64,000 bases of DNA from a virus (taxonomy: Duplodnaviria > Caudoviricetes), in IMG/VR virus record IMGVR_UViG_2906626472_000001, positions 1 through 64,000 of that record. The stretch is one strand, 5' to 3'. The notes beneath the pieces were generated by a model. The model did not search any database, had not been told where the DNA came from, and saw only the letters and a list, made by a program, of their open reading frames with translations. The number at the start of each line of letters is the position of its first letter. The first letter of the stretch is position 1. The position numbers and the translations under genes were made by a program. Below are positions 2,293 through 59,861 of this stretch, piece by piece.

Positions 2293-3492
2293 TTACGCGA
2301 CTCGGGAGAGCTTTCGAGACCGCTTTCCTGGACCCCGCTTTTTGGTGATCAGGTTGGTCGCATCGCTCATGTAGTCGGGGTGATGATGACCGTAGTTGTC
2401 GATCAAAACCTTCGGTGACATGCCGAGATATCCTGACGCTTCCCAGATGTCGCAGCCCTGCTGCATGAGCCAAGTCGCAGCGGTATGACGCAGCGTGTGT
2501 GGCGTGACGTTGCCTTCCGAGAGATCAAGCTTCGCCAGCTCGACAGCGCTCGCCATTGCCGTCTTGACGCTCTTGATCGCGGCACCGTTCCACTCGACGA
2601 AGTGACTGGCGACGATCCCCCTGTCGACCCACCGACGCATGTGCGCGAGCAGTCGGTCCGGCAGGGGGATGATAGGCTGCCGCTTGTTGCTCTTCTTCTT
2701 GCCGATCGCCAGGCGGTGGTAGACGCCCTCGTCGAGATCGACATAGGACTTGCCGGTCGCCTTGTGGATCGAGGCGGAAGCGATGGCTGCCGCACGAGTG
2801 CCGGTGTATAGACCGATCAGGATGAACCGGGCGAGATGGCGGAGCGTGTACTTGCCCGTCTTGATCTTGATGCCCTTGTTCTTCCCGCGATGGATCGTCT
2901 GCTCTTCCTTGTATCGCCAGCAGGTCCACAGAAGATGGGCGGCCTCGGAGCGCTGAAGCCAACGCTCTCGACGGTCGCCCTTCTCAGGAAGGTTCACGCT
3001 GATGACAGCTCGATGGAGGTTCTCGTTGCCGTGATGATTGACGGCGGCCCGGAGGTTCTCCAGGTCGCGACGAGCGCCGCCCTTGCTGCCGCGATGCTTG
3101 ACGTAACCATCGGTCATGTCGCTGTTCATCGCGCCCAGGTACTTCTTGCCGAAGTATTTGCCGAGCCGGGTGATCGACTGCTTCAGTCGCCGGATCTGAA
3201 GTTCCTGGGTCTCTTCGTCGTACTCTTTGACCTTGTGCTTGTAATAGATCGCGAGGACGTCGGCGAGCAGGATCTCATCGACGTCGCGCAGCTTGCGCTC
3301 GGGATTGTACTTGGTCGCTATGTACTTGCTGAGCGCTTTTTCCGCTTCCTCGGGCGGTCGTCGCTCACCAGGTTTAACAAGGACTCCTGTGCTAGTTGAG
3401 CTTTCTCCGTCTCGGATAACCCAGACGGATTTACGTCCTCCCTTCCGGGCAGGTCGTTTGTAGAGTCGTGCTCCCTTGTTCTGTTGCGACAT
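2293..3492 (-). CDS. int: Tyrosine recombinase (phage integrase)
   Basis: Catalytic motifs YTGTR, HTLRHTAATW and the Tyr in YGHHHP; adjacent to the att site. Confidence 0.93.
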   Translation of the reverse strand: MSQQNKGARLYKRPARKGGRKSVWVIRDGESSTSTGVLVKPGERRPPEEAEKALSKYIATKYNPERKLRDVDEILLADVLAIYYKHKVKEYDEETQELQIRRLKQSITRLGKYFGKKYLGAMNSDMTDGYVKHRGSKGGARRDLENLRAAVNHHGNENLHRAVISVNLPEKGDRRERWLQRSEAAHLLWTCWRYKEEQTIHRGKNKGIKIKTGKYTLRHLARFILIGLYTGTRAAAIASASIHKATGKSYVDLDEGVYHRLAIGKKKSNKRQPIIPLPDRLLAHMRRWVDRGIVASHFVEWNGAAIKSVKTAMASAVELAKLDLSEGNVTPHTLRHTAATWLMQQGCDIWEASGYLGMSPKVLIDNYGHHHPDYMSDATNLITKKRGPGKRSRKLSRVA

Positions 3493-40223: not shown

Positions 40224-40323
40224 CAAAAACCTCCGTGATTGGGTTGGCGTCCGGATAAGACGTCGCAGGCTCGAATGCAAGCGAAATTTGCAGGAATGCA
40301 AATCCTCTGCTACGGCTCGTTCC

Positions 40324-45931: not shown

Positions 45932-48900
45932 GGTTCAGTTCCTGCTTGCTGTTGCGGCGAAAGCGGCGGCGCATCTTTGCGCTGACACGCGCCTTCGCCC
46001 GCTTCGATCGGTTGCTGCTGTAGGTTTCGGATGGGTAAACGTCCGCATCATCCTGCTCCCTGCGCTTCGCGGACAATTCCGCGTAGCTCGAAGAAAATTT
46101 CATTGCGGGCCGGGTCATCCGGGCCGACGTTTTCGATGAACCACCATGCTAGGAAGAGCGCCCGCTCCTTGGCGAACGGGTTCGGTGTCATGGACGGCGC
46201 GAGATGGGTTTCGTCGTACAGGGCCGCAGCCTGCCGGAACTGGGCATGTGTTTTCTTCAGTGCCATCGGCTTTGCTCCGGCTTCGTTTCAGTCAGATCGG
46301 CATCGCTGATCCAGATGAAGCGGTAGACCTTGTCGTGATCGAACAGCGCTTCGGTCTTGCTCAGCAGCTCGACGTCGCGCCAATGCACGGCGTAGCTGTC
46401 TCCCCAGCCCGTGCGCTGCCGCTCAACCGGGGTCCCGCGCTTGACAGCCAGACGATGGATGTCCTGGTAGGTGATGATCAGGTCGCGGCTGACGTACTTC
46501 CATTGCGGCGGTACCTTGTTCATGGGCGTGCTCACTTGGCGTCTGAGCAGATCAGGTGCGCGGCCTTTTCGAGCGTCTTGGCGTCGACGTCCCAAGCCTT
46601 TGCGCTCGTGCCGTCCTGCCAGTTGTGGCGCAGGTGCTCGGCCTTCTCCGAGCAGATCAACGAAAGCCCGGTGACGACATGCGTAAGGCCGTGACGATCG
46701 ATCAGGCCTTCCAAGATGGCGGTGACGTTCTCCATGTCAGTCCTCCAGAGAGTCGAGATAGGCCTGACCAGCAGGCGTGAGGTACAGCTCGCCCAGGATG
46801 AAGACGGCGAAGCCGGCGAGCACAGCGCTCCAGACCGGGCCGAGGATGGCCAAGGCCTCATATGTGAGGGATTGCAGCGCGAGCATTGCATTTGCTTTCA
46901 AGCAAGGCTCAAGGCACACCTCGGGCGCGAAGTGGAAGAGGTTAGGCATTCAGCCCTGCGTATTTGCTCAGATCATCCCAGTCAGCGTCCCAGACGGGAC
47001 GCGGTGTGCTGCCAGGCTCGGTCACGGTGACGCGCTTCACACGGTCGTTAAAGCAGATGCGGTTGCGGTAGAAGTCCCGCGCCTCGCTGAACGATTTGAA
47101 CGGATGCCGGTCGGCCGAGCCGTTCGTGAAGCGAATGATTACGGTGTGCATGCCTCGTCACCTGTTGAATTGCACCAGCGGATTGGTTTGCCCGCCGCTG
47201 GTCGGGCTGTGCGTCCGGTCGCTCGCGGCTTCACCGGTCCAAAAAGTCGTCAGTCGTTCTGCAGCTGGTTGAAACGTGGGGGTCGCTTACTTCATGGCCG
47301 ATCTCCATCGTCGTTGCTCAAACTCGGCACCCTCGCCTTGCGCTTCTTGTTGGGCACAACGCGGGGCTTGTATTTCGGCGTCCGCAGATCACGAGCGATC
47401 GGCGAGCGCCTGACCGTCTTGCGTTTCTTCATGGTCTGCGGCTCGATGAATTGGGGATGGCCGGATAGCGCCGGCCTCGCCACTGCGTTTGGGTCGCAGC
47501 AACCAAATACGCTGCCCATTTCTCCGGGCTCGCGAACTTCACAGTCCTGTCATGGGTGGCCATCCTCGCCAGGCGCGGGCCAGGGCGCCGAAGCTAGGCC
47601 GTTTGATGAGTGGCCCTGCGGATTTCCCCTGCCTTCGTGTGCGGACCGCTTTACCGCACACCTTGGGGTCTCGTTGCCACCTTGCCGCGCCCGTTGCAGG
47701 CGGAGCATGGTGGTGATCCGTCGTTGTCGTAGTAGCCGGAGCCGTTACACGCGCTGCATTTCACCAGCTTCCAGCCCTTCACGTTTTGCTCGAAGTGCTG
47801 GCGTCGCAGCGCCTTGCGCTCGTGGTAGTCCATGCTCGATCTCCCAGCGATTGGTCCGCCAGTACAGATCGGACTCGGACCAGAGACGGTCGCTAACCCG
47901 CACGCGGGCCAGCATCTCTTCGTGCTCCCTGCTCATCGCTCCAGCTCCGCCAGCTCGACTTCGAGCGGGTGATAGTCCTCGAACCTGGTGTTGGCCCAGC
48001 CGCCGCGGGACAGGTCCGACAGGACGCGGATGATCGCCAGCCGGCGCCGCCTGCGCTGCTTTGCACTCATCACAGCCGCCAATGGTTCATGCGGGCGCGG
48101 ATGTCCTCGCGCTCGTTGCTGTTGGCCGGAAGCGGTGAGGGTCGCTCCGCTCCGGCAAACTCGGCGCCGGCAACGAACGCCGCACGCATGGCGCGGTGCT
48201 CGACCGTATCCAGGTTCCAGCGGCGGGCCGCCGCTTCCTCGGCCTCGGACAGGAGGATGCTCATGCTCGCCCCATCTCGCACCAGGGCAGATCGAGAGCG
48301 TGGACCATGTACGCCGAGGTGAAGGCGACGAAGGCGTCGAACTCCATGCAGCGCATGGCCTGCGCCCGGTTGACGACGTAGTGCCGGCCGCCGTCGTCCT
48401 TGAACTCGAAGGCGTCCATGCCGCTCTCGCAGAATGTCCGCGTCGTCCTGGCCGCCCGGTGCTGGCTCTCGATGATGGCCGGATCGCTCTGGAAGGGATC
48501 GGCCGGGTGGAATGGAAGTGACGTCAACATCAGCGCCTCCCGACGTGCAGGGTGGTGGTTTCAGGGGTGAGGATCGAGCGAATGCCGTTGACCAGCTCGG
48601 TGTCGTCGCAGCCGTTGGCGATCAGCTTCTCGGCATGGGCGTAGACTCGAGGGATCGAGGTCATGGGGATCAGGATGCCGGTCACGGCGCGCTGGATCCG
48701 AGCGGCGTCGGCCGCCTGCTGTTTCTTGGTGCGCTTCACGGCTCAAGCCTCGACGAAGGCCCAGCCGCGGGGGACGCGGGGAGCGGGCGGTTGGAGGCGA
48801 GCGAACACGGCGCGGTAGTTGCCGCCATCGTTCAGGACGTGGGCGGCTTCACGGGCGATGCGGAGCGAGCGCATGCAGACCTGTGCGACTGAGCCGTCCT

Positions 48901-50602
48901 TGGTGACGACGGTCAGGGTGGGTTGAGGACGTGGGACGAGTCTGGTCACGAACGTTGCTCCTTGAGCGGTGGGGAAGGCATTTGCACGAATGCTAAAGCA
49001 AATGCAAGAGCAAATTCGCCCTAACAAAGCCAAACTTTCATGCGAAAAGATGAGGGTCCGGAAGGCGCTCAGCGCCCGCCCGGAAATTCGAGAATATTTC
49101 CCGAATAAATGGGCCGCCGACGAATTTCGGACCGCCCCGGGGTATTTTCGAAGGCCGCCTCTAGGGCCTCGATCGTGGCTTGGATCACCTGGTCCTGGAC
49201 ACGGGGAGAGAGGACCACGGAGCCGGCTTCCATCAGGATCGCCGACTGGCTCGGGGTCCGATTGGTGCGGGTAGAGTACGCACAGAACAGAGCGCGCAGA
49301 CGCTCACGCATTGGGTTCCTCCATGCGGTTCAGTTTCACGTTTCAGCTGGAAATCACGGGATATCGGGGCCGCCGCCATTCGCGGGCCGCCGGACCTCCA
49401 CCACCTCAAGCAAGAGGCACAGGAGGAGGAGCAGCAGGGACAGGAGACACAGCCAGTAGGGATGGCTCAGGGGAGGGTGCAGACACACGAGGAGTCCACA
49501 CCGGCCTGTTTCTGGCACTCACCAGCACGCAAACACACGGATTTCGAGCGTAGACACGTACGGGCCGTCGTCTCGAAACTTCGCTCGCCATAAAAGAGCG
49601 GATTAATTTTCACGTCGAAATGGGACAAACGGCCCCCTCGGACACAAGATATAGTGCCCGAGGGGGCCAAAATGATCACGAAAGCGGGGTCCAGACCCTG
49701 TTTTGGAGGGGTCACCTACCAGATCTTGTTATCTGGTCAGCTGCGCTATGTGCGCCTCCAGCCCTGAGGCTGCGACTTTGCCTGCCAGTGTCCAGCCGGC
49801 GTATGCAAATGCACACAGGAAGGCAAATGCGACGGGGACGGGGATGACGAGTGCGGAGAGTCTTCTCATGGGATTTCCTTTCAGGGGTTTTGGTCAGGGA
49901 CCGCCAGTGCGCCGGGACGTCGACGGGGCGCACGCCGCCAATTCGGGGTTAGCGAGCGCGGATCTGGAGCGCGGCATCGAGCGGAGGGGTGGCGCGCATC
50001 CGGGCGCCGGTCAGCACGGCGTCTTCCAGATCGTCGGTGTAGTAGGCGGAGGGCTCAGCCTTGGAGTAGGGCAGCTCGGCGAAGGCGACGCGGAACTCGC
50101 GGTCACGGCGAGTGAGGCGCATGCCGGACAAAGCGAGGCGCTGACGGGCTTCGGTGATGGTGAACATGGGACGGATTCCTGGCGTGTGGTGAATCGGTGT
50201 TGCGGGGATGGGGTGGAGGCGTGCTCAGCCGGCCATGATGCGGCCGACGATCGGCGAGTGGCCGGAGCGCAGGAGGCGATTGGGGCGCGGGTAGACGATG
50301 GGCGCGAACCACTCAGCCGGCTTCTTGCGGATGAGCGGGCGCACGGGTGGCGTGGCCTCGACCGGCTCATGTCCGAGCATGGTGCGGACCTGCCGCACGG
50401 TGGCTTTGGTGACGAGCGTACGCCCGGTGCGGACGCACACGAGGCGTGCGTTGGCTGGCGAGGTCTCGATCTGGCGGAGCGTGGCGCGGGACAGCACGAA
50501 CTCAAGGCGCTGGCCGGAGCTGTCGCGTGGGGTGACCCATGACCCGTCGTGTTGGGTCTGGAGGTAGCCGATGGGTGGTCTCATGGCGTGTGGTCCAAAT
50601 AG

Positions 50603-50665: not shown

Positions 50666-51286
50666 TTACGCGGCCTGCGCAACCGGGGCGGACGCTGCCG
50701 GAGCGGTGGCGGGGGTTGCCTTGGCTTCCTTCGGAGCCTTGGCGCCGCGCGCAGCGGTGGCGTTCTGCTTCTGGCGCTCGACCGCGGTCTCGTCGCCTTC
50801 CGGGCGAATGGCGAGGAGCTTGGCGATCATGCTGGTATGGTCGCGGCCGGTCTCCTTGTGGTCGCGTTCCATCTTCTTGACGAGCGAGTCGATGGACTTG
50901 GCGATGTCCATGGGCACGTAGTCCGCCTCCGGCTTGAAGGCGTAGAACGGCTTGGCCATGGCGTCGCCCAGCTTGACCGGGTTGGCGCCATTGAACTTGA
51001 TGTCGCCACCTTCCGCGAACGTGACGGGACCGAAAAATTCGAACCACGCCTTGACGGCATTCTTGCGCGTCATGTCGGGCAGCGACGAAAGCAGTTCCGT
51101 CACGAGGCGGATGTCGGAATGCTTGCCGACATGGGCGAGCACGGAGCAGCAAGCGACATGGATGTCGCGTTGCAGGGTCGCACCTCGAGTCTTGATCGAA
51201 GCGAGCGCCTTCTTGATGGCGGTTTCGCCGTCAATGAGCTTGATGACGGACGGAGTAGCAGCCTTAACGGTCGTGGTCTTGGACAT
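50666..51286 (-). CDS. First gene of the left arm; hypothetical protein ending APVAQAA
   Basis: AGGAG RBS before MSKTTTVK; strongly biased codons. Confidence 0.75.
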   Translation of the reverse strand: MSKTTTVKAATPSVIKLIDGETAIKKALASIKTRGATLQRDIHVACCSVLAHVGKHSDIRLVTELLSSLPDMTRKNAVKAWFEFFGPVTFAEGGDIKFNGANPVKLGDAMAKPFYAFKPEADYVPMDIAKSIDSLVKKMERDHKETGRDHTSMIAKLLAIRPEGDETAVERQKQNATAARGAKAPKEAKATPATAPAASAPVAQAA

Positions 51287-51289
51287 AGT

Positions 51290-52345
51290 CGGACTCCTGA
51301 TTGACTTGGGGTTTAGATGGGGGTCACGCCCATCGGAAAACGCGAGCGTTAAGCAGCGCTTTGCGAGAGGCATGCAGACACACTCCGAGCGCAGACAGAG
51401 TCGGCGCCCGGAGCGGTTCGGTTTTGGGGAATTTCGAGAGTTGTTAGCCGGGGGAAAGGCTAGGCCTAGTTCCTCGCAAGTCCGGCCAAGCAAAAACCGC
51501 GGTTAGAATTTCGTCGCGGTCCGTCACTTGGCTAACCTTGAAAGGCTATTGAAAAGCTTCACTGTCCCGGCGGACCGTTGCGCCTCAAAGCATGCCATTG
51601 CGGATAGAGGCGGACTCAACGGTCCCGGTTGAACCACGCTACCAGAGGCCGCAGCATTGCGTTATGTCATGGAGTCGGACCGTGACGGCGCAACGTGTCC
51701 CGGATTATGTGCCGTTGTTTGGCTTTAGTCCCGGGCATTGGGCTTGCATTTGAGAGTCGCGCATTGTCCGATTACTAGCCGGGCAATGCGCCATTCCCGC
51801 AAACGTACAGGGTTGATAGCGTAATTTCCGATACTCTCATATGCCGGGTTACCTAACTTAATAGGCCTTCCCATGTGACAGGTCCGTCACTTGAGCGAGA
51901 GGCGTTGCCATGAACGCGGGAAACTTGCCGGACCATATCGCCACTTAAGGCCGCTACTGTGAAACCCGCTTAGAGCATGCTGGCAAGCCGCGCATATCTC
52001 TAGACCGTTTCACCTAACCAAGCCGCCAAGCTTGGCCGGTAACTTCCTTTCCCTCACAACCCGCGATCTAGTGGCACAATGCCAAGCCCGACTAAGGGGA
52101 CTCTAGATCGCCGATTGCTACCGGTAACCCTGTTAGGGTTAGGGCTTTCGGCCCTACTTGGAAGCGGTAGCTATGTCCCGAAAGTTTCTCGCCTAGCTTT
52201 GCTGCCGGTTCCTACCCGGGCAAGCCCGGGACCAAACCATATTGCAAACGCGGTGCAAGAAACCAAAAGCGAAAGGACTTTGAAGGTAAGTCCGAAGTCC
52301 GTTTCGTTTCGGTCCCGAAGCTTCATTGCTTCAGTGACAACAACG
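51290..52345. ncRNA. Candidate large structured non-coding RNA or leader (~1.05 kb)
   Basis: No credible ORF; nearly continuous nested helices (see findings). Confidence 0.6.
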
Positions 52346-53021
52346 TAGCATCAAAAACATGGTTGGAAAGCGAAAAAAATATTCAATGAAATCAGCAAGT
52401 TAGAAGCCCGAAAATTGCATCTCTTGCATTCTCAGAGCAAAAATCGTGCAACAAAAATGCAAGCAAATCAAAGACTTAGCAGAGTGAAACGACGAGTCGG
52501 CAAGTCTGATTTGCATTCCCTTTGGAAAGTCCCCTGAAATGAATACGAAATGAGAACAAACCTTAGACTTTGGTCTAGTCTCTGATCATTTCGAGTATTC
52601 ATCCGGGCGAGAAAAAGATTTCAAAGTTTCGAAAAGAAGAGGATTTTTTTTATTGACATGGCCCCCTCGTGTGGCCGTCCGCTCCAAACTTCCCACGCCC
52701 AAAAGGCCATTTATCACAAGCGCTTGGACCCCACCCGCCCAAACGGCAGCCCCGTGCTACAGCTGCGGCCCGCCATGCGTTAAATCGCTCCCCGAGCTGG
52801 CTCAGTGCCCCCGATCTGGGAGGCCGCTCCTGGGGCTTCTCTGGCCGTTTGCATTCTAGGGGTGGCCTGCAAAAAGACCCCACCCCGTTTTGGGGCCCCA
52901 TCGGGGCGGCCCGCGTCCCAAAAGGCCGATTTCCGAGTGTAGCGAGGGCTTCGCCCTGATACATGAGACCGAACGCCCGCCGCCCATGGGTAGCGAGCGC
53001 TCCGCGCTGATAGGGAGAACC

Positions 53022-53216
53022 ATGGCCGGCCTCGGGCAACACGACACCATCATCGGCTACCGCGTCGACGAGCTGCGCCGGCTCCTCGCCCTGCGGGACG
53101 AGGTGATGCATGTGCTCAGGCCTGGCGCCGATCGGCCGCGCCGCATCGCGGAGTATCTGTCGCAGCGGCACCTCGCCAGGCGCTTCAAGAGCGTCGAGCC
53201 GGCCAACGATCCGTAG
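53022..53216 (+). CDS. Small hypothetical protein between hairpin repeats
   Basis: GGGAG RBS right after the repeat; stop lies just before the next repeat. Confidence 0.55.
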   Translation: MAGLGQHDTIIGYRVDELRRLLALRDEVMHVLRPGADRPRRIAEYLSQRHLARRFKSVEPANDP

Positions 53217-53237
53217 CTGGGTGGCGAGCGCTCCGCG

Positions 53238-53450
53238 CTAACCGGAAGAGGTTGGTCCCGGCCGCGTGGCCCCGGGGAAGGGGACCACATCGCCGTCCGC
53301 TGCGCGTATCACCGCCTTGGCCATCCGCATCGGGTCGAACCCGAGATCTGCGACCGCGTCGGCTACGCCCTGGCGCTCCAGCTCGGCGACGATCGCCTCG
53401 CTCACCTTCATCAGCCTGGCCAGCTCGGCGGAGCTGTCGGTCATGATCAT
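53238..53450 (-). CDS. Small hypothetical protein between hairpin repeats
   Basis: Stop codon overlaps the repeat end; DVVPFP motif. Confidence 0.55.
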   Translation of the reverse strand: MIMTDSSAELARLMKVSEAIVAELERQGVADAVADLGFDPMRMAKAVIRAADGDVVPFPGATRPGPTSSG

Positions 53451-53528
53451 GCCCTCGGTAAAGCCGAGACCATGGTATCACGCCGGCCGTGGGTAGCGAG
53501 CGCTCCGCGCTGATGGTATCGAGCCGGC

Positions 53529-53945
53529 ATGTGGCAGACCAGGCAATGCGAACACTGCGAGACCCCGTTCACCCGTCGAGACCGGCCGAACCAGCGCTTC
53601 TGCTCGCACGACTGCTCGGTGGCCTTCAAGATTAAGGGCCGCCCGACGAGCCGCCGCTGCGAGTGCTGTCCGACCGTCTTCCCGATCGGTGCCCGGCAGA
53701 AGAACAAGCGCTTCTGCTCGATGCACTGCGTCGGTCTCTGGCGCGAGCGCGAGAAGCGCCTGAACCGGAAACCGGAGCCGCCGAGGATCCGCCGCAAGCC
53801 TGGCCGCCTCGAATGGAAGATCTCCGGCGGCCAGAACAGCCGTGGCATGGCGCCGAGCCCGCGGTCACCGTCGTCGTCGCCGCCCCGCTGGGCTGACCTT
53901 CTGACCAGGCTCGGCTACGCCCGGGTCAGAACCGGGCATGGGTAG
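53529..53945 (+). CDS. Protein with two CxxC...RFCSxxC zinc-ribbon repeats
   Basis: CEHC...RFCSHDC and CECC...RFCSMHC; stop is the TAG of the repeat. Confidence 0.65.
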   Translation: MWQTRQCEHCETPFTRRDRPNQRFCSHDCSVAFKIKGRPTSRRCECCPTVFPIGARQKNKRFCSMHCVGLWREREKRLNRKPEPPRIRRKPGRLEWKISGGQNSRGMAPSPRSPSSSPPRWADLLTRLGYARVRTGHG

Positions 53946-54022
53946 CGAGTGCTCCGCGCTGGACTATTGCAACACTGTCGCGGCGCTGGCAGGAATGCGT
54001 CCATCGTTTTCGGGAGGGGGCA

Positions 54023-54430
54023 ATGGCATCCAGCGACGAACGCGCCAAATTACTCCGAATAAGCCGAGGGCTCGACCGACTAAACAACCCATGTCAATTG
54101 TGTAAGCAACGGGGAGCTATTTCGTCGAAAACACACTTTGCTGCAAATTTCGGATTGGCGTTTACGCGGACTGAAAACCATCTGGAGGGCTACTTTTGCG
54201 GGCCATGCATCCATAAGAAATTTCTGCTTTTTACTTTTATCAATTTGATTGGTTGGTTCGGAATAGTGTCCATCATCAAGGTTCCCATGTTTTTGCTGTC
54301 CAATATTGCGGAGTATGAATTTGCGATCAGGGCTATGCTACGAAAGCGCAAGCAGCGCCTCGCCCTGATTGAGGACTTGCTTGAGAAAGACGCGCAAGCC
54401 CGTCGGAATTTGAGTTCTCGAGGATCCTGA
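54023..54430 (+). CDS. Low-GC membrane protein with CxxC pairs
   Basis: CQLC...CGPC followed by a hydrophobic segment. Confidence 0.6.
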   Translation: MASSDERAKLLRISRGLDRLNNPCQLCKQRGAISSKTHFAANFGLAFTRTENHLEGYFCGPCIHKKFLLFTFINLIGWFGIVSIIKVPMFLLSNIAEYEFAIRAMLRKRKQRLALIEDLLEKDAQARRNLSSRGS

Positions 54431-54663
54431 ATCCGATGACGAAACCACCCAAAGAATTGCGCGATCTCGACAAGCAATTTGAGGCGACCCTAATTGCTGT
54501 TCGAGACCTCTATACTAGAGCGATGGAGCTTGGTGTCAGAGACATCGAACGAGCCTCTGAAGTTGCCCACGATGCCCTTGTAGTTTGCAAGCTAGCTCGA
54601 TTACCCACGTCGTGCCGGACGCCCAGAAGTCGAGGGCATGGGTAGCGAGCGCTCCGCGCTGAT

Positions 54664-59786: not shown

Positions 59787-59861
59787 GCTGGGGTAGCTCA
59801 ACGGTAGAGCGCCTGGCTTCCAACCAGGTGGTTGTGGGTTCGAGCCCCACCCCTCGCTCCA
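59787..59861 (+). tRNA. tRNA-Gly(TCC)
   Basis: Cloverleaf with CCTGG-CTTCCAA-CCAGG anticodon arm, GTTCGA T-loop, U73 and CCA; T3-C70 mismatch. Confidence 0.85.

Follow-up and report, generated by a model that had tools for sequence, protein, structure and literature searches.

Nucleotides 51290 to 52345 of a 64,000-nt stretch of phage DNA (positions 1 to 64,000 of IMG/VR record IMGVR_UViG_2906626472_000001; this whole stretch is called the window below) are predicted to encode an undescribed large structured RNA of about 0.8-1.1 kb that would found a new family. Its conserved core would measure about 0.77-0.85 kb and, together with peripheral hairpins that belong to the window copy, the RNA would reach about 1.1 kb. 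The element contains no protein-coding gene, is without a match among known RNA families, lies on the minus strand and has a fold that is maintained by paired changes among its homologues; it is followed by the first gene of the leftward arm of the phage, which codes for a protein of family PHROG 1448. A first-pass annotation, made from the sequence alone, had described the stretch as either a new class of large non-coding RNA or a structured leader of 1 kb, and comparison with shuffled sequences, covariation and reading frames leave both of these readings standing. To our knowledge, bacteria and phages rarely have folded RNAs that exceed about 500 nt and are backed by covariation, and only a handful of classes exist.

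The element is non-coding and folds better than shuffled sequence

Each of the six reading frames across positions 51290 to 52345 is interrupted by 13-16 stop codons, in agreement with the initial description of the stretch as gene-free. The longest open reading frame (ORF) from start to stop has 89 codons (52079-52348, plus strand), has no match in Pfam or PHROGs and falls on a segment that is missing from the relatives. All five homologous sequences, including the window, have 5-16 stops per frame, and tblastx between homologues returns short matches only; at identical places these fall into several frames and onto both strands, a pattern expected from conservation of the nucleotides. Thus, no translated ORF is conserved among the homologues and the element is neither a protein-coding gene nor a pseudogene: there is no open frame and no amino-acid conservation confined to one frame.

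The first-pass annotation had listed inverted repeats as evidence for nested helices. Eight of these pairs were recovered by script at exactly the positions given (51361/51473, 51572/51617, 51746/51833, 51905/51981, 52063/52103, 52117/52165, 52175/52227 and 51794/51916) and a further one (51657/51693) is visible by eye. On the minus strand, the minimum free energy (MFE) of the 1056-nt element is -441 kcal/mol, compared with -378.3 +/- 9.9 kcal/mol for dinucleotide shuffles (z -6.3, 40 shuffles per strand); the respective values for the plus strand are -414.4 kcal/mol and z -3.5. Four coding controls of the same length, taken from the minus strand of the arm, have z-scores of -2.1, -0.03, -2.68 and -0.32 (20 shuffles each). 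When the element is divided into segments of 300 nt, the only outlier is 52100-52399 (z -6.25, minus strand); the remaining three (z -2.7, -2.6 and -0.15) are within the range of their coding neighbours, as is expected if much of the pairing is long-range.

The annotation had left open which strand is transcribed, with some helices appearing to favour the plus strand. There is indeed a hairpin in the window (51670/51682) with a wobble pair that fits the plus strand better; nevertheless, the strand can be resolved. Two adjacent U-G pairs within a 13-bp helix (described below) are invariant in five of five sequences and would be C-A mismatches on the other strand; RNAalifold gives better energies in gene sense than in antisense for both alignments examined (-84.1 versus -66.3 for alignment A3, -42.3 versus -36.2 for alignment A4); and the MFE z-scores point in the same direction. 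By weight of evidence the RNA is on the minus strand and has the same sense as the downstream gene.

The tetranucleotide CTAG was counted seven times in the element, as originally noted, which corresponds to 6.6 per kb (0.36 per kb in the arm from 3500 to 51286; 3.2-4.0 expected from composition). It is strongly avoided in the coding arm and not in the element, and two of the element's copies are within invariant blocks.

Homologues of the element

Distant blastn searches with the stretch found no match among 50,697 phage records or 72,556 plasmids, and homologues were therefore sought via the neighbouring protein. A large protein database contains 34 relatives of the PHROG 1448 protein, the closest of which (P0002) is 84% identical; the locus survey covered the loci of relatives other than P0002 and P0007. 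A search with alignment A1, which comprises 17 of the 34 relatives, identified 33 viral and 6 genome loci. Only three of the viral loci (L009, L010 and L011, on contigs of 128, 50 and 108 kb) share DNA blocks with the region upstream of the gene in the window, and these three also encode the most similar proteins (63, 56 and 55% identity, respectively). Pattern searches that were independent of the protein recovered the same three IMG/VR contigs, one of the searches recovering only two of the known homologues, and added two fragments from metagenomes, of which L117 covers the 5' part of the element and L119 the 3' part together with the gene. The pattern is also present in one of 400 Bradyrhizobium genomes; this copy (L120) is identical to L009 and lies within a contig of 8.3 Mb, where the element of the integrated relative is in the middle of the viral region and not at its end. 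Close relatives of the window copy are found on contigs of the metagenome runs X2 and X3, and one such contig covers the stretch from end to end, differing at 83 positions and with 6 gaps over 1501 nt. The element is thus narrowly distributed. Apart from four full copies and two fragments there are a few near-identical relatives, and all of these come from Bradyrhizobium-type phages or from soil or plant samples. In all five copies that have their 3' side on the contig, the PHROG 1448 gene follows at a similar distance.

A covariance model of the most conserved part only (block 1; model R1, built from 6 training sequences) matches 51799-51900 at 81 bits and, over 45 sources, matched only its 6 training sequences. 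Among 38 loci that encode relatives of the protein (33 viral, 5 genome), L009-L011 are the only ones with a block-1 match; the 35 without a match include all podophage-like loci and the 30 viral loci with more distant relatives of the protein. The idea that podophage relatives of the protein also carry the element was rejected, as R1 finds none there.

Several further candidates were dismissed. R1 matches in L042 have E-values of 0.71 and 0.88 and are noise, and the pattern match of this locus is inside a coding sequence and comes without a protein relative. The pattern matches L046-L048 are a single AT-rich coding stretch seen three times and are, like the match in L118, judged to be chance. 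In one pattern search, 68 of the 71 loci were judged to be chance without being inspected individually; the remaining three (L043, L044 and L045) are known homologues. The nearest isolated phage, Bradyrhizobium phage BDU-MI-1 (121 kb), does not qualify as a homologue either: at the syntenic spot it has two other genes and a short AT-rich leader (z -2.7), and R1 finds nothing in 36 kb of this phage.

The spot in BDU-MI-1 that corresponds to the element and the PHROG 1448 gene (103335-105648; 18336-20649 of L002) is occupied by two unrelated genes of 259 and 169 aa, the first of which has a promoter-like box about 130 nt upstream. Both the RNA and the PHROG 1448 gene are absent there, and the pair therefore has the appearance of an exchangeable module.

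Covariation supports the fold

From the four full sequences RNAalifold predicts 104 consensus pairs, with 90.7% of the cells paired compared with 77.7% in shuffles. Changes on both sides are seen in 44 of these pairs; shuffles give 19.1 on average (0 of 500 reach 44) and a control with the partners slid by 1-3 columns gives 7-8. The core shared by five sequences behaves similarly (21 of 52 pairs with both-side changes; 10.3 in shuffles, 1-5 with slid partners). The clearest single feature is a long-range helix of 13 bp that spans 170-260 nt: it is 100% paired in both the four-sequence and the five-sequence set, 8 of its 13 pairs are changed on both sides, and it is free of the caveat that pairs were counted on the very alignments that had predicted them. 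Homologues that are folded as single sequences have the same hairpins with different stem sequences. Even between the close relatives, the hairpin 51657-51693 is kept by paired changes in runs X2 and X3 (G51661T with C51689A, T51667C with A51685G). The homologues thus covary, in alignments of four as well as of five sequences.

Two of the helices proposed originally are complementary in the window but not kept in the relatives: in place of 51746/51833 the comparative fold pairs 51826-51814 with 51644-51632, and in place of 51794/51916, which had been suggested as a pseudoknot or switch, it pairs 51920-51916 with 52064-52060. Two further pairings were rejected: the AUCGG/CCGAU long-range pairing (helix 10) lacks covariation and is in conflict with the covarying local hairpin that ends the element, and an anti-ribosome-binding-site pairing (helices 1-2) consists of just 3 bp each and is broken in L011.

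Could the stretch be a decayed gene or a spacer without function, with hairpins and covariation that arise from chance, alignment artefacts or relatedness? The sequences are a handful and related, their structures were derived from the alignments and then counted, and some 300-nt segments fold no better than their coding neighbours. Nonetheless, we regard this explanation as barely credible: invariant blocks of 10-20 nt persist though the flanking protein is only 55-63% identical and other parts of the leader are unalignable, the long-range helix is completely paired with most pairs changed on both sides, the z-score of the whole region is beyond that of all four controls, and there is no trace of a reading frame. 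Highly unlikely, too, is a function at the level of DNA, as replication origin, packaging or injection-stop region or as inverted repeats bound by a protein. The element does lie beside an AT-rich region with many repeated TTGCAT/ATGCAA boxes and where the leftward arm meets the rightward genes, and inverted repeats can form in single-stranded DNA too; however, a 13-bp helix between distant strands and about 20 compensated helices are not expected of double-stranded binding sites, the strand asymmetry in U-G pairs, RNAalifold energies and MFE points to a single-stranded product of one strand, the integrated relative has the element in the middle of its viral region, and no direct-repeat iterons were found in the element.

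Domain architecture

Alignments A2-A6 consist of invariant blocks between parts that are unalignable or variable in length. The conserved blocks are CCUAUUMAGUUAGGUA..CCG, CGGAAAUUAYG, ACCYUGUACG, GGCCUC, GCAAUGSCAWGCUUUG, AUAGC, AACUAGGC and GCGCUCGGA.UCUGYCUG. In comparison to its relatives, the window has about 210 nt extra at the 5' end and about 65 nt extra inside the core, and L119 has about 100 extra nt elsewhere in the core. The extra segment of L119 repeats, at about 150-185, the sequence GGGCCTT.TGGGCCGTTGCCGGATGGCAG, which is otherwise found in the 5' domain (compare the minus strand of L117 and about 4261-4290 of L009); a second copy of a hairpin module appears to have been inserted elsewhere in the RNA.

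The fold would be modular (Table 1), starting with variable 5' hairpins and a conserved 5' domain, continuing with a multi-helix junction with invariant loop and joining sequences and the 13-bp helix, and proceeding via a long hairpin with a palindrome in its loop and three more hairpin domains to a largely unpaired ribosome-binding site. The 5' peripheral segment is much shorter and different in the relatives and is thus a variable expansion. Within the 5' domain, which is closed by the helix 52064-52060 with 51920-51916, both-side changes are present in 3 of 5 pairs of helix 4 and 1 of 4 pairs of helix 6. Block 1 contains the invariant hairpin CCUA-UUMAGU-UAGG and, after it, CGGAAAUUA and ACCYUGUACG as conserved single strands, and its junction is also recovered by independent single-sequence folds, in agreement with helices 1-4 of the five-sequence set.

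The long hairpin has a different stem in each of the five sequences, which were folded alone: GGACCGUUG/CAACGGUCC, GCUAUCG/CGAUAGC, GCUUUCG/CGAAAGC, GCUUCUGG/CCAGAAGC and AAAAUCGAA/UUCGAUUUU. In its invariant loop (51590-51605 in the window), four sequences have the palindrome GCAUGC and L011 has AAGCUU two positions along; a role of this palindrome as a self-pairing (kissing) site is possible, and is no more than a lead. The last hairpin has four different stems among the five sequences (GAUGGG/CCCAUC, CGAUAG/CUAUCG, CGAUAGG/CCUAUCG and AUGGC/GCCAU). The element ends about 30 nt before the start codon, which is ATG 51286 and not 51288.

Table 1. Features of the element and its flanks in the window, in the direction of the minus strand
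Feature	Position	Strand	Basis or remark
Promoter-/operator-like box: variant of the 16-nt motif, then a second ATGCAA box	52415..52438	-	about 1.13 kb upstream of ATG 51286
5' peripheral segment of stable hairpins 52117/52165, 52175/52227 and 52275-52300	52136..52345	-	about 200 window-only columns in A2
5' conserved domain: invariant GUAGC, conserved CUAG, hairpin GGCC-loop-GGCC (51952-51939)	51909..52135	-	A3 and RNAalifold
Block 1, most conserved: multi-helix junction, outer stem, covarying hairpin	51800..51905	-	A5, mean column identity 80%
Long-range helix (13 bp), 5' strand; pairs with 51644-51632	51814..51826	-	covariation
Variable interior closed by the long-range helix; about 65 window-only nt including hairpin 51657-51693	51645..51799	-	A3, A4
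Long-range helix, 3' strand; invariant GGCCUC just 5' of the strand	51632..51644	-	covariation
Long hairpin, stem different in every relative; conserved loop UAU.CGGCAAUGGCAUGCUUUG with 6-nt palindrome	51572..51625	-	five independent folds; helix 14 of the four-sequence and helix 9 of the five-sequence set
Domain D, irregular long hairpin region; invariant AUAGC and AACUAGGC	51447..51571	-	helices 16-20: 13 of 26 pairs changed on both sides
Conserved hairpin, stem UCCGAGCG/CGCUCGGA, then conserved UCUGYCUG	51381..51415	-	helix 21: 13 pairs, 98% of cells paired, 3 both-side changes
Last hairpin, about 20 nt upstream of the ribosome-binding site	51317..51334	-	folds in all five sequences
Ribosome-binding site AGGAG (51298-51294) and start codon ATG (51286-51284)	51284..51298	-	sequence and frame check; AGGAG 8 nt upstream of ATG
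First gene behind the element: 206-aa protein, PHROG 1448, uncharacterised	50666..51286	-	E 3e-40

Transcription context and the possibility of a cis-acting leader

A 16-nt motif, GCUUGCUUGAAUGCAA in gene sense (also written GCTTGCTTGAATGCAA), has 17 matches in the window with up to 3 mismatches, compared with 0.45 expected. Fifteen of these copies are in gene sense on the leftward arm (6768-46907, minus strand), each with a ribosome-binding site 10-45 nt further on; CTTGAC often precedes the motif and a second ATGCAA box often comes after it. The other two copies are in plus sense at 40265 and 57982. The motif is a candidate for a family of phage-specific promoters or operators. A variant of the motif is present upstream of the element at 52438-52415, and this box is likely to be the start region of the transcript; it is a likelier start than the leftward promoter near 52345-52375 that was suggested in the first-pass annotation. 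L009 has a match to the motif (up to 4 mismatches) about 955 nt before the ATG and L117 has one at the corresponding place; L010 and L011 have only the 6-nt word ATGCAA, 1065-1095 nt before the ATG.

No further promoter-like box was found between 52438-52415 and the gene and no terminator-like site on the minus strand from 52275 to 51287, and in the simplest view the element is therefore the 5' portion of the first gene's transcript. A weak terminator-like site is present at 52293-52275, with the total count of such sites equal to that of shuffles. The element accordingly has what defines a leader, being 5' untranslated sequence on the same strand as the gene. Judged from the positions of the boxes, a leader of about 1 kb is unique in the arm to the first gene; the leaders of the other transcripts measure tens of bases. 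The 15 further boxes, each 10-45 nt ahead of a gene, indicate that the arm is not one long operon and leave the earlier proposal of a leader that controls the arm of about 49 kb without support; control of the whole arm is unlikely. The ribosome-binding site is unpaired, or paired weakly and differently, in the five single-sequence folds, and no conserved expression platform was found, neither a terminator nor a conserved helix over the ribosome-binding site.

With these data, the element may act in cis as 5' leader of an early mRNA and determine how strongly the first gene and the few genes behind it are expressed. It could do so by stabilisation of the transcript, by modification of the passing RNA polymerase (processive antitermination as in the put RNAs of phage HK022) or by sensing of a signal, with an effect on translation or elongation. 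We consider this quite possible, at a probability clearly below one half. It would account for the position of the element between promoter-like box and start codon with no terminator-like site before the gene, for the similar distance between the last hairpin and the ribosome-binding site in all five copies and for the constant company of the PHROG 1448 gene; with no other box between element and gene, every message for that gene should carry the element. Its size of 770-1100 nt with about 20 helices is, however, far beyond the needs of known antitermination or attenuation signals, a conserved expression platform (terminator or helix covering the ribosome-binding site) is missing, and the 15 internal boxes make a read-through of 49 kb unnecessary. 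Alternative folds are hinted at by the block-1 strand GAGAG/CUAG, which has two possible partners in the window and L010, but the alternative pairing is absent from L009, L119 and L011.

Comparison with known RNA families

Searches with Rfam 15 at gathering scores gave two tRNA matches in the whole window and none in the element; with E-values of up to 10, the region 51000-52900 has four weak matches, all of them outside of 51290-52345. The novelty that had been claimed for the element thus holds: no family matches, and this includes GOLLD, ROOL, OLE, HEARO, raiA, group I and II introns, RNase P, tmRNA, 6S RNA and riboswitches. A literature search for structured non-coding RNAs of Bradyrhizobium phages and for BDU-MI-1, confined to these terms and to articles without their supplementary files, found no description of this RNA.

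GOLLD and ROOL are large 'ornate' RNAs of phages and prophages, with many GOLLD RNAs exceeding 800 nt, and are often located near tRNA islands; they form RNA-only multimeric cages, in which palindromic loops make symmetric intermolecular kissing loops that switch between palindromes, as described in a cryo-EM study (bioRxiv 10.1101/2024.12.08.627333). The element resembles them in being phage-encoded, in its length of hundreds of nucleotides, and in its covarying fold of several domains with variable linker and peripheral parts; its most conserved loop has a 6-nt palindrome, reminiscent of their kissing loops, with multimers being only a lead from the sequence. The element differs in having no match to the Rfam models, in its distance to the nearest tRNA (at 59787, 7.4 kb away), in being fused to the 5' end of a protein gene rather than standing alone, and in the Bradyrhizobium phages that host it. 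Without a model match and without a tRNA island the element is not a member of GOLLD or ROOL.

In its operon context OLE RNA is part of a longer transcript. The element, too, would be a large conserved RNA within a longer transcript, and by analogy the gene behind it is a candidate partner, OLE being a large conserved RNA that works with partner proteins (bioRxiv 10.1101/2024.12.08.627333). Unlike OLE, the element has no match to the Rfam OLE model, occurs in other organisms and is next to a PHROG 1448 protein that has no solved relative.

The putL and putR RNAs of phage HK022 are cis-acting antiterminators of about 70 nt with two stem-loops. The element shares with them the position of a folded RNA just after an early phage promoter (here a promoter-like box), at the head of an early transcription unit; it is more than 10 times larger, has about 20 helices and belongs to an arm with many internal promoter-like boxes. 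At the non-coding left genome end of T7-like phages, the first gene comes after early promoters, an untranslated leader of considerable length and an RNase III site, and a long untranslated stretch before the first early gene is found here as well. In Autographiviridae-like rhizobial phages, the PHROG 1448 family is the first gene and follows about 660 gene-free nt; unlike the element, these podophage leaders have no match to block 1, as described above for 35 of the 38 loci, and we know of no T7 leader that forms a conserved fold of 0.8 kb. By these comparisons, the element would be a new family that resembles GOLLD and ROOL in kind and the put RNAs in position only.

A proposed function as a folded RNA in its own right

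Our preferred reading, held with somewhat less than even confidence, is that the element works as a folded 'ornate' RNA in its own right, is recognised by a partner and is made together with the early message. Transcription would most likely start at the phage-type box 52438-52415 and run without a terminator into the PHROG 1448 gene, which would make the RNA the first product of the leftward arm of the phage. Its invariant unpaired nucleotides would be recognised by a partner, either a protein (possibly the product of the gene behind) or the RNA copies themselves, and the RNA may be cut from the message rather than being a simple on/off leader. The long runs of invariant unpaired nucleotides suggest recognition by a partner; the size, a conserved core into which 65-210 nt are inserted in several places, and the finding of neither a conserved terminator nor a conserved helix over the ribosome-binding site favour an RNA with its own function.

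Several points weigh against this. The family is tiny (four full and two partial sequences plus near-identical relatives) and with so few and related sequences the covariation counts rest on a small basis; they are also inflated, because the structures were predicted from the same alignments. Part of the fold is unsettled, since the AUCGG/CCGAU helix conflicts with the last hairpin and the pairing of domain D partly differs between two predictions. The chance of a 6-nt palindrome in a loop of this size is estimated at roughly 1 in 6. Because the protein served to find three of the four full copies, their link to the gene is to some extent a product of the search. No RNA run is listed among those that contain the stretch, and no weight is given to run X24, which is RNA only by guess and has patchy contigs about 90% alike; partner, processing and assembly of the RNA are proposals, and the direct fusion to the gene with no terminator between them fits a cis-acting leader equally well.

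A bolder version, which we think less likely than not though worth stating, is that the element represents a new class of giant 'ornate' RNAs and that a clade of temperate Bradyrhizobium phages makes this RNA before anything else; such an RNA could serve untranslated as a self-assembling scaffold or cage in the manner of GOLLD and ROOL, as a decoy for a host protein or defence system, or as a ribonucleoprotein with the uncharacterised early protein of the gene behind it.

Several of the large classes (GOLLD, ROOL and OLE) form striking RNA-only assemblies with unexplained functions (bioRxiv 10.1101/2024.12.08.627333). A further unrelated class would add a case that is favourable for experiments: the element is at the very start of the early programme and fused to an uncharacterised gene that is widespread as the 'first gene' in podophages (429 phage records), and at least one relative resides, integrated, in the chromosome of a Bradyrhizobium, a host genus that can be cultivated. 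Such a case could show how a large temperate phage of rhizobia begins infection or induction.

Genomic setting and the PHROG 1448 protein

A Bradyrhizobium draft genome contains the window on one of its contigs, which measures about 145 kb (locus L003). Phage genes in the window, translated from the minus strand, include an integrase (2293-3492), thymidylate synthase, ribonucleotide reductase, primase/helicase, helicase and rIIA. Megablast with positions 40000-64000 of the window has BDU-MI-1 as its sole match, over 5% of the query; the helicases of the two phages are 80% identical. To the right of the element, the segment 52150-52750 is AT-rich (40-47% G+C).

Relatives of the PHROG 1448 protein were identified by tblastn in the 429 phage records mentioned, mostly podophages of Pseudomonas, Acinetobacter and Rhizobium. 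In related podophages the gene is the first of the genome; in Rhizobium phage RHph_Y48, for example, it is the first annotated coding sequence (668-1189). The protein has no family in Pfam or PADLOC. Its AlphaFold model has a mean pLDDT (predicted local distance difference test score) of 77.8 and no PDB match at an E-value of 0.001 or better, and the matches in BFVD are uncharacterised phage proteins only. The protein searches therefore yield no clue to the role of the element.

Further observations in the surrounding region

At 46146-49459, within an arm that is otherwise read from the minus strand, the longest ORFs are on the plus strand; one of them (46777-48033, 418 aa) has no match in PHROGs or Pfam. 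Upstream of the promoter region is a minus-strand ORF of 70 aa (53238-53450) that has no family in Pfam, PHROGs or PADLOC and is similar in length and sequence in L117.

Two blocks upstream of the AT-rich region (52610-52935) are conserved in L009, L011, L117 and even in BDU-MI-1. They contain AAATGGCCTTTTGGG..GGGAAGTTTGGAG, a GGCC hairpin and a run of eight A, on the plus strand a T-run followed by TTGACA, and may be a control region of the rightward genes. At 52927-54663 there are six repeats of 34 nt in the same orientation, each with the hairpin AGCGC-TCC-GCGCT and with small ORFs in between; the repeat is also present in BDU-MI-1, as short matches of 92-100% identity at about 17700, 17960 and 18190 of L002.

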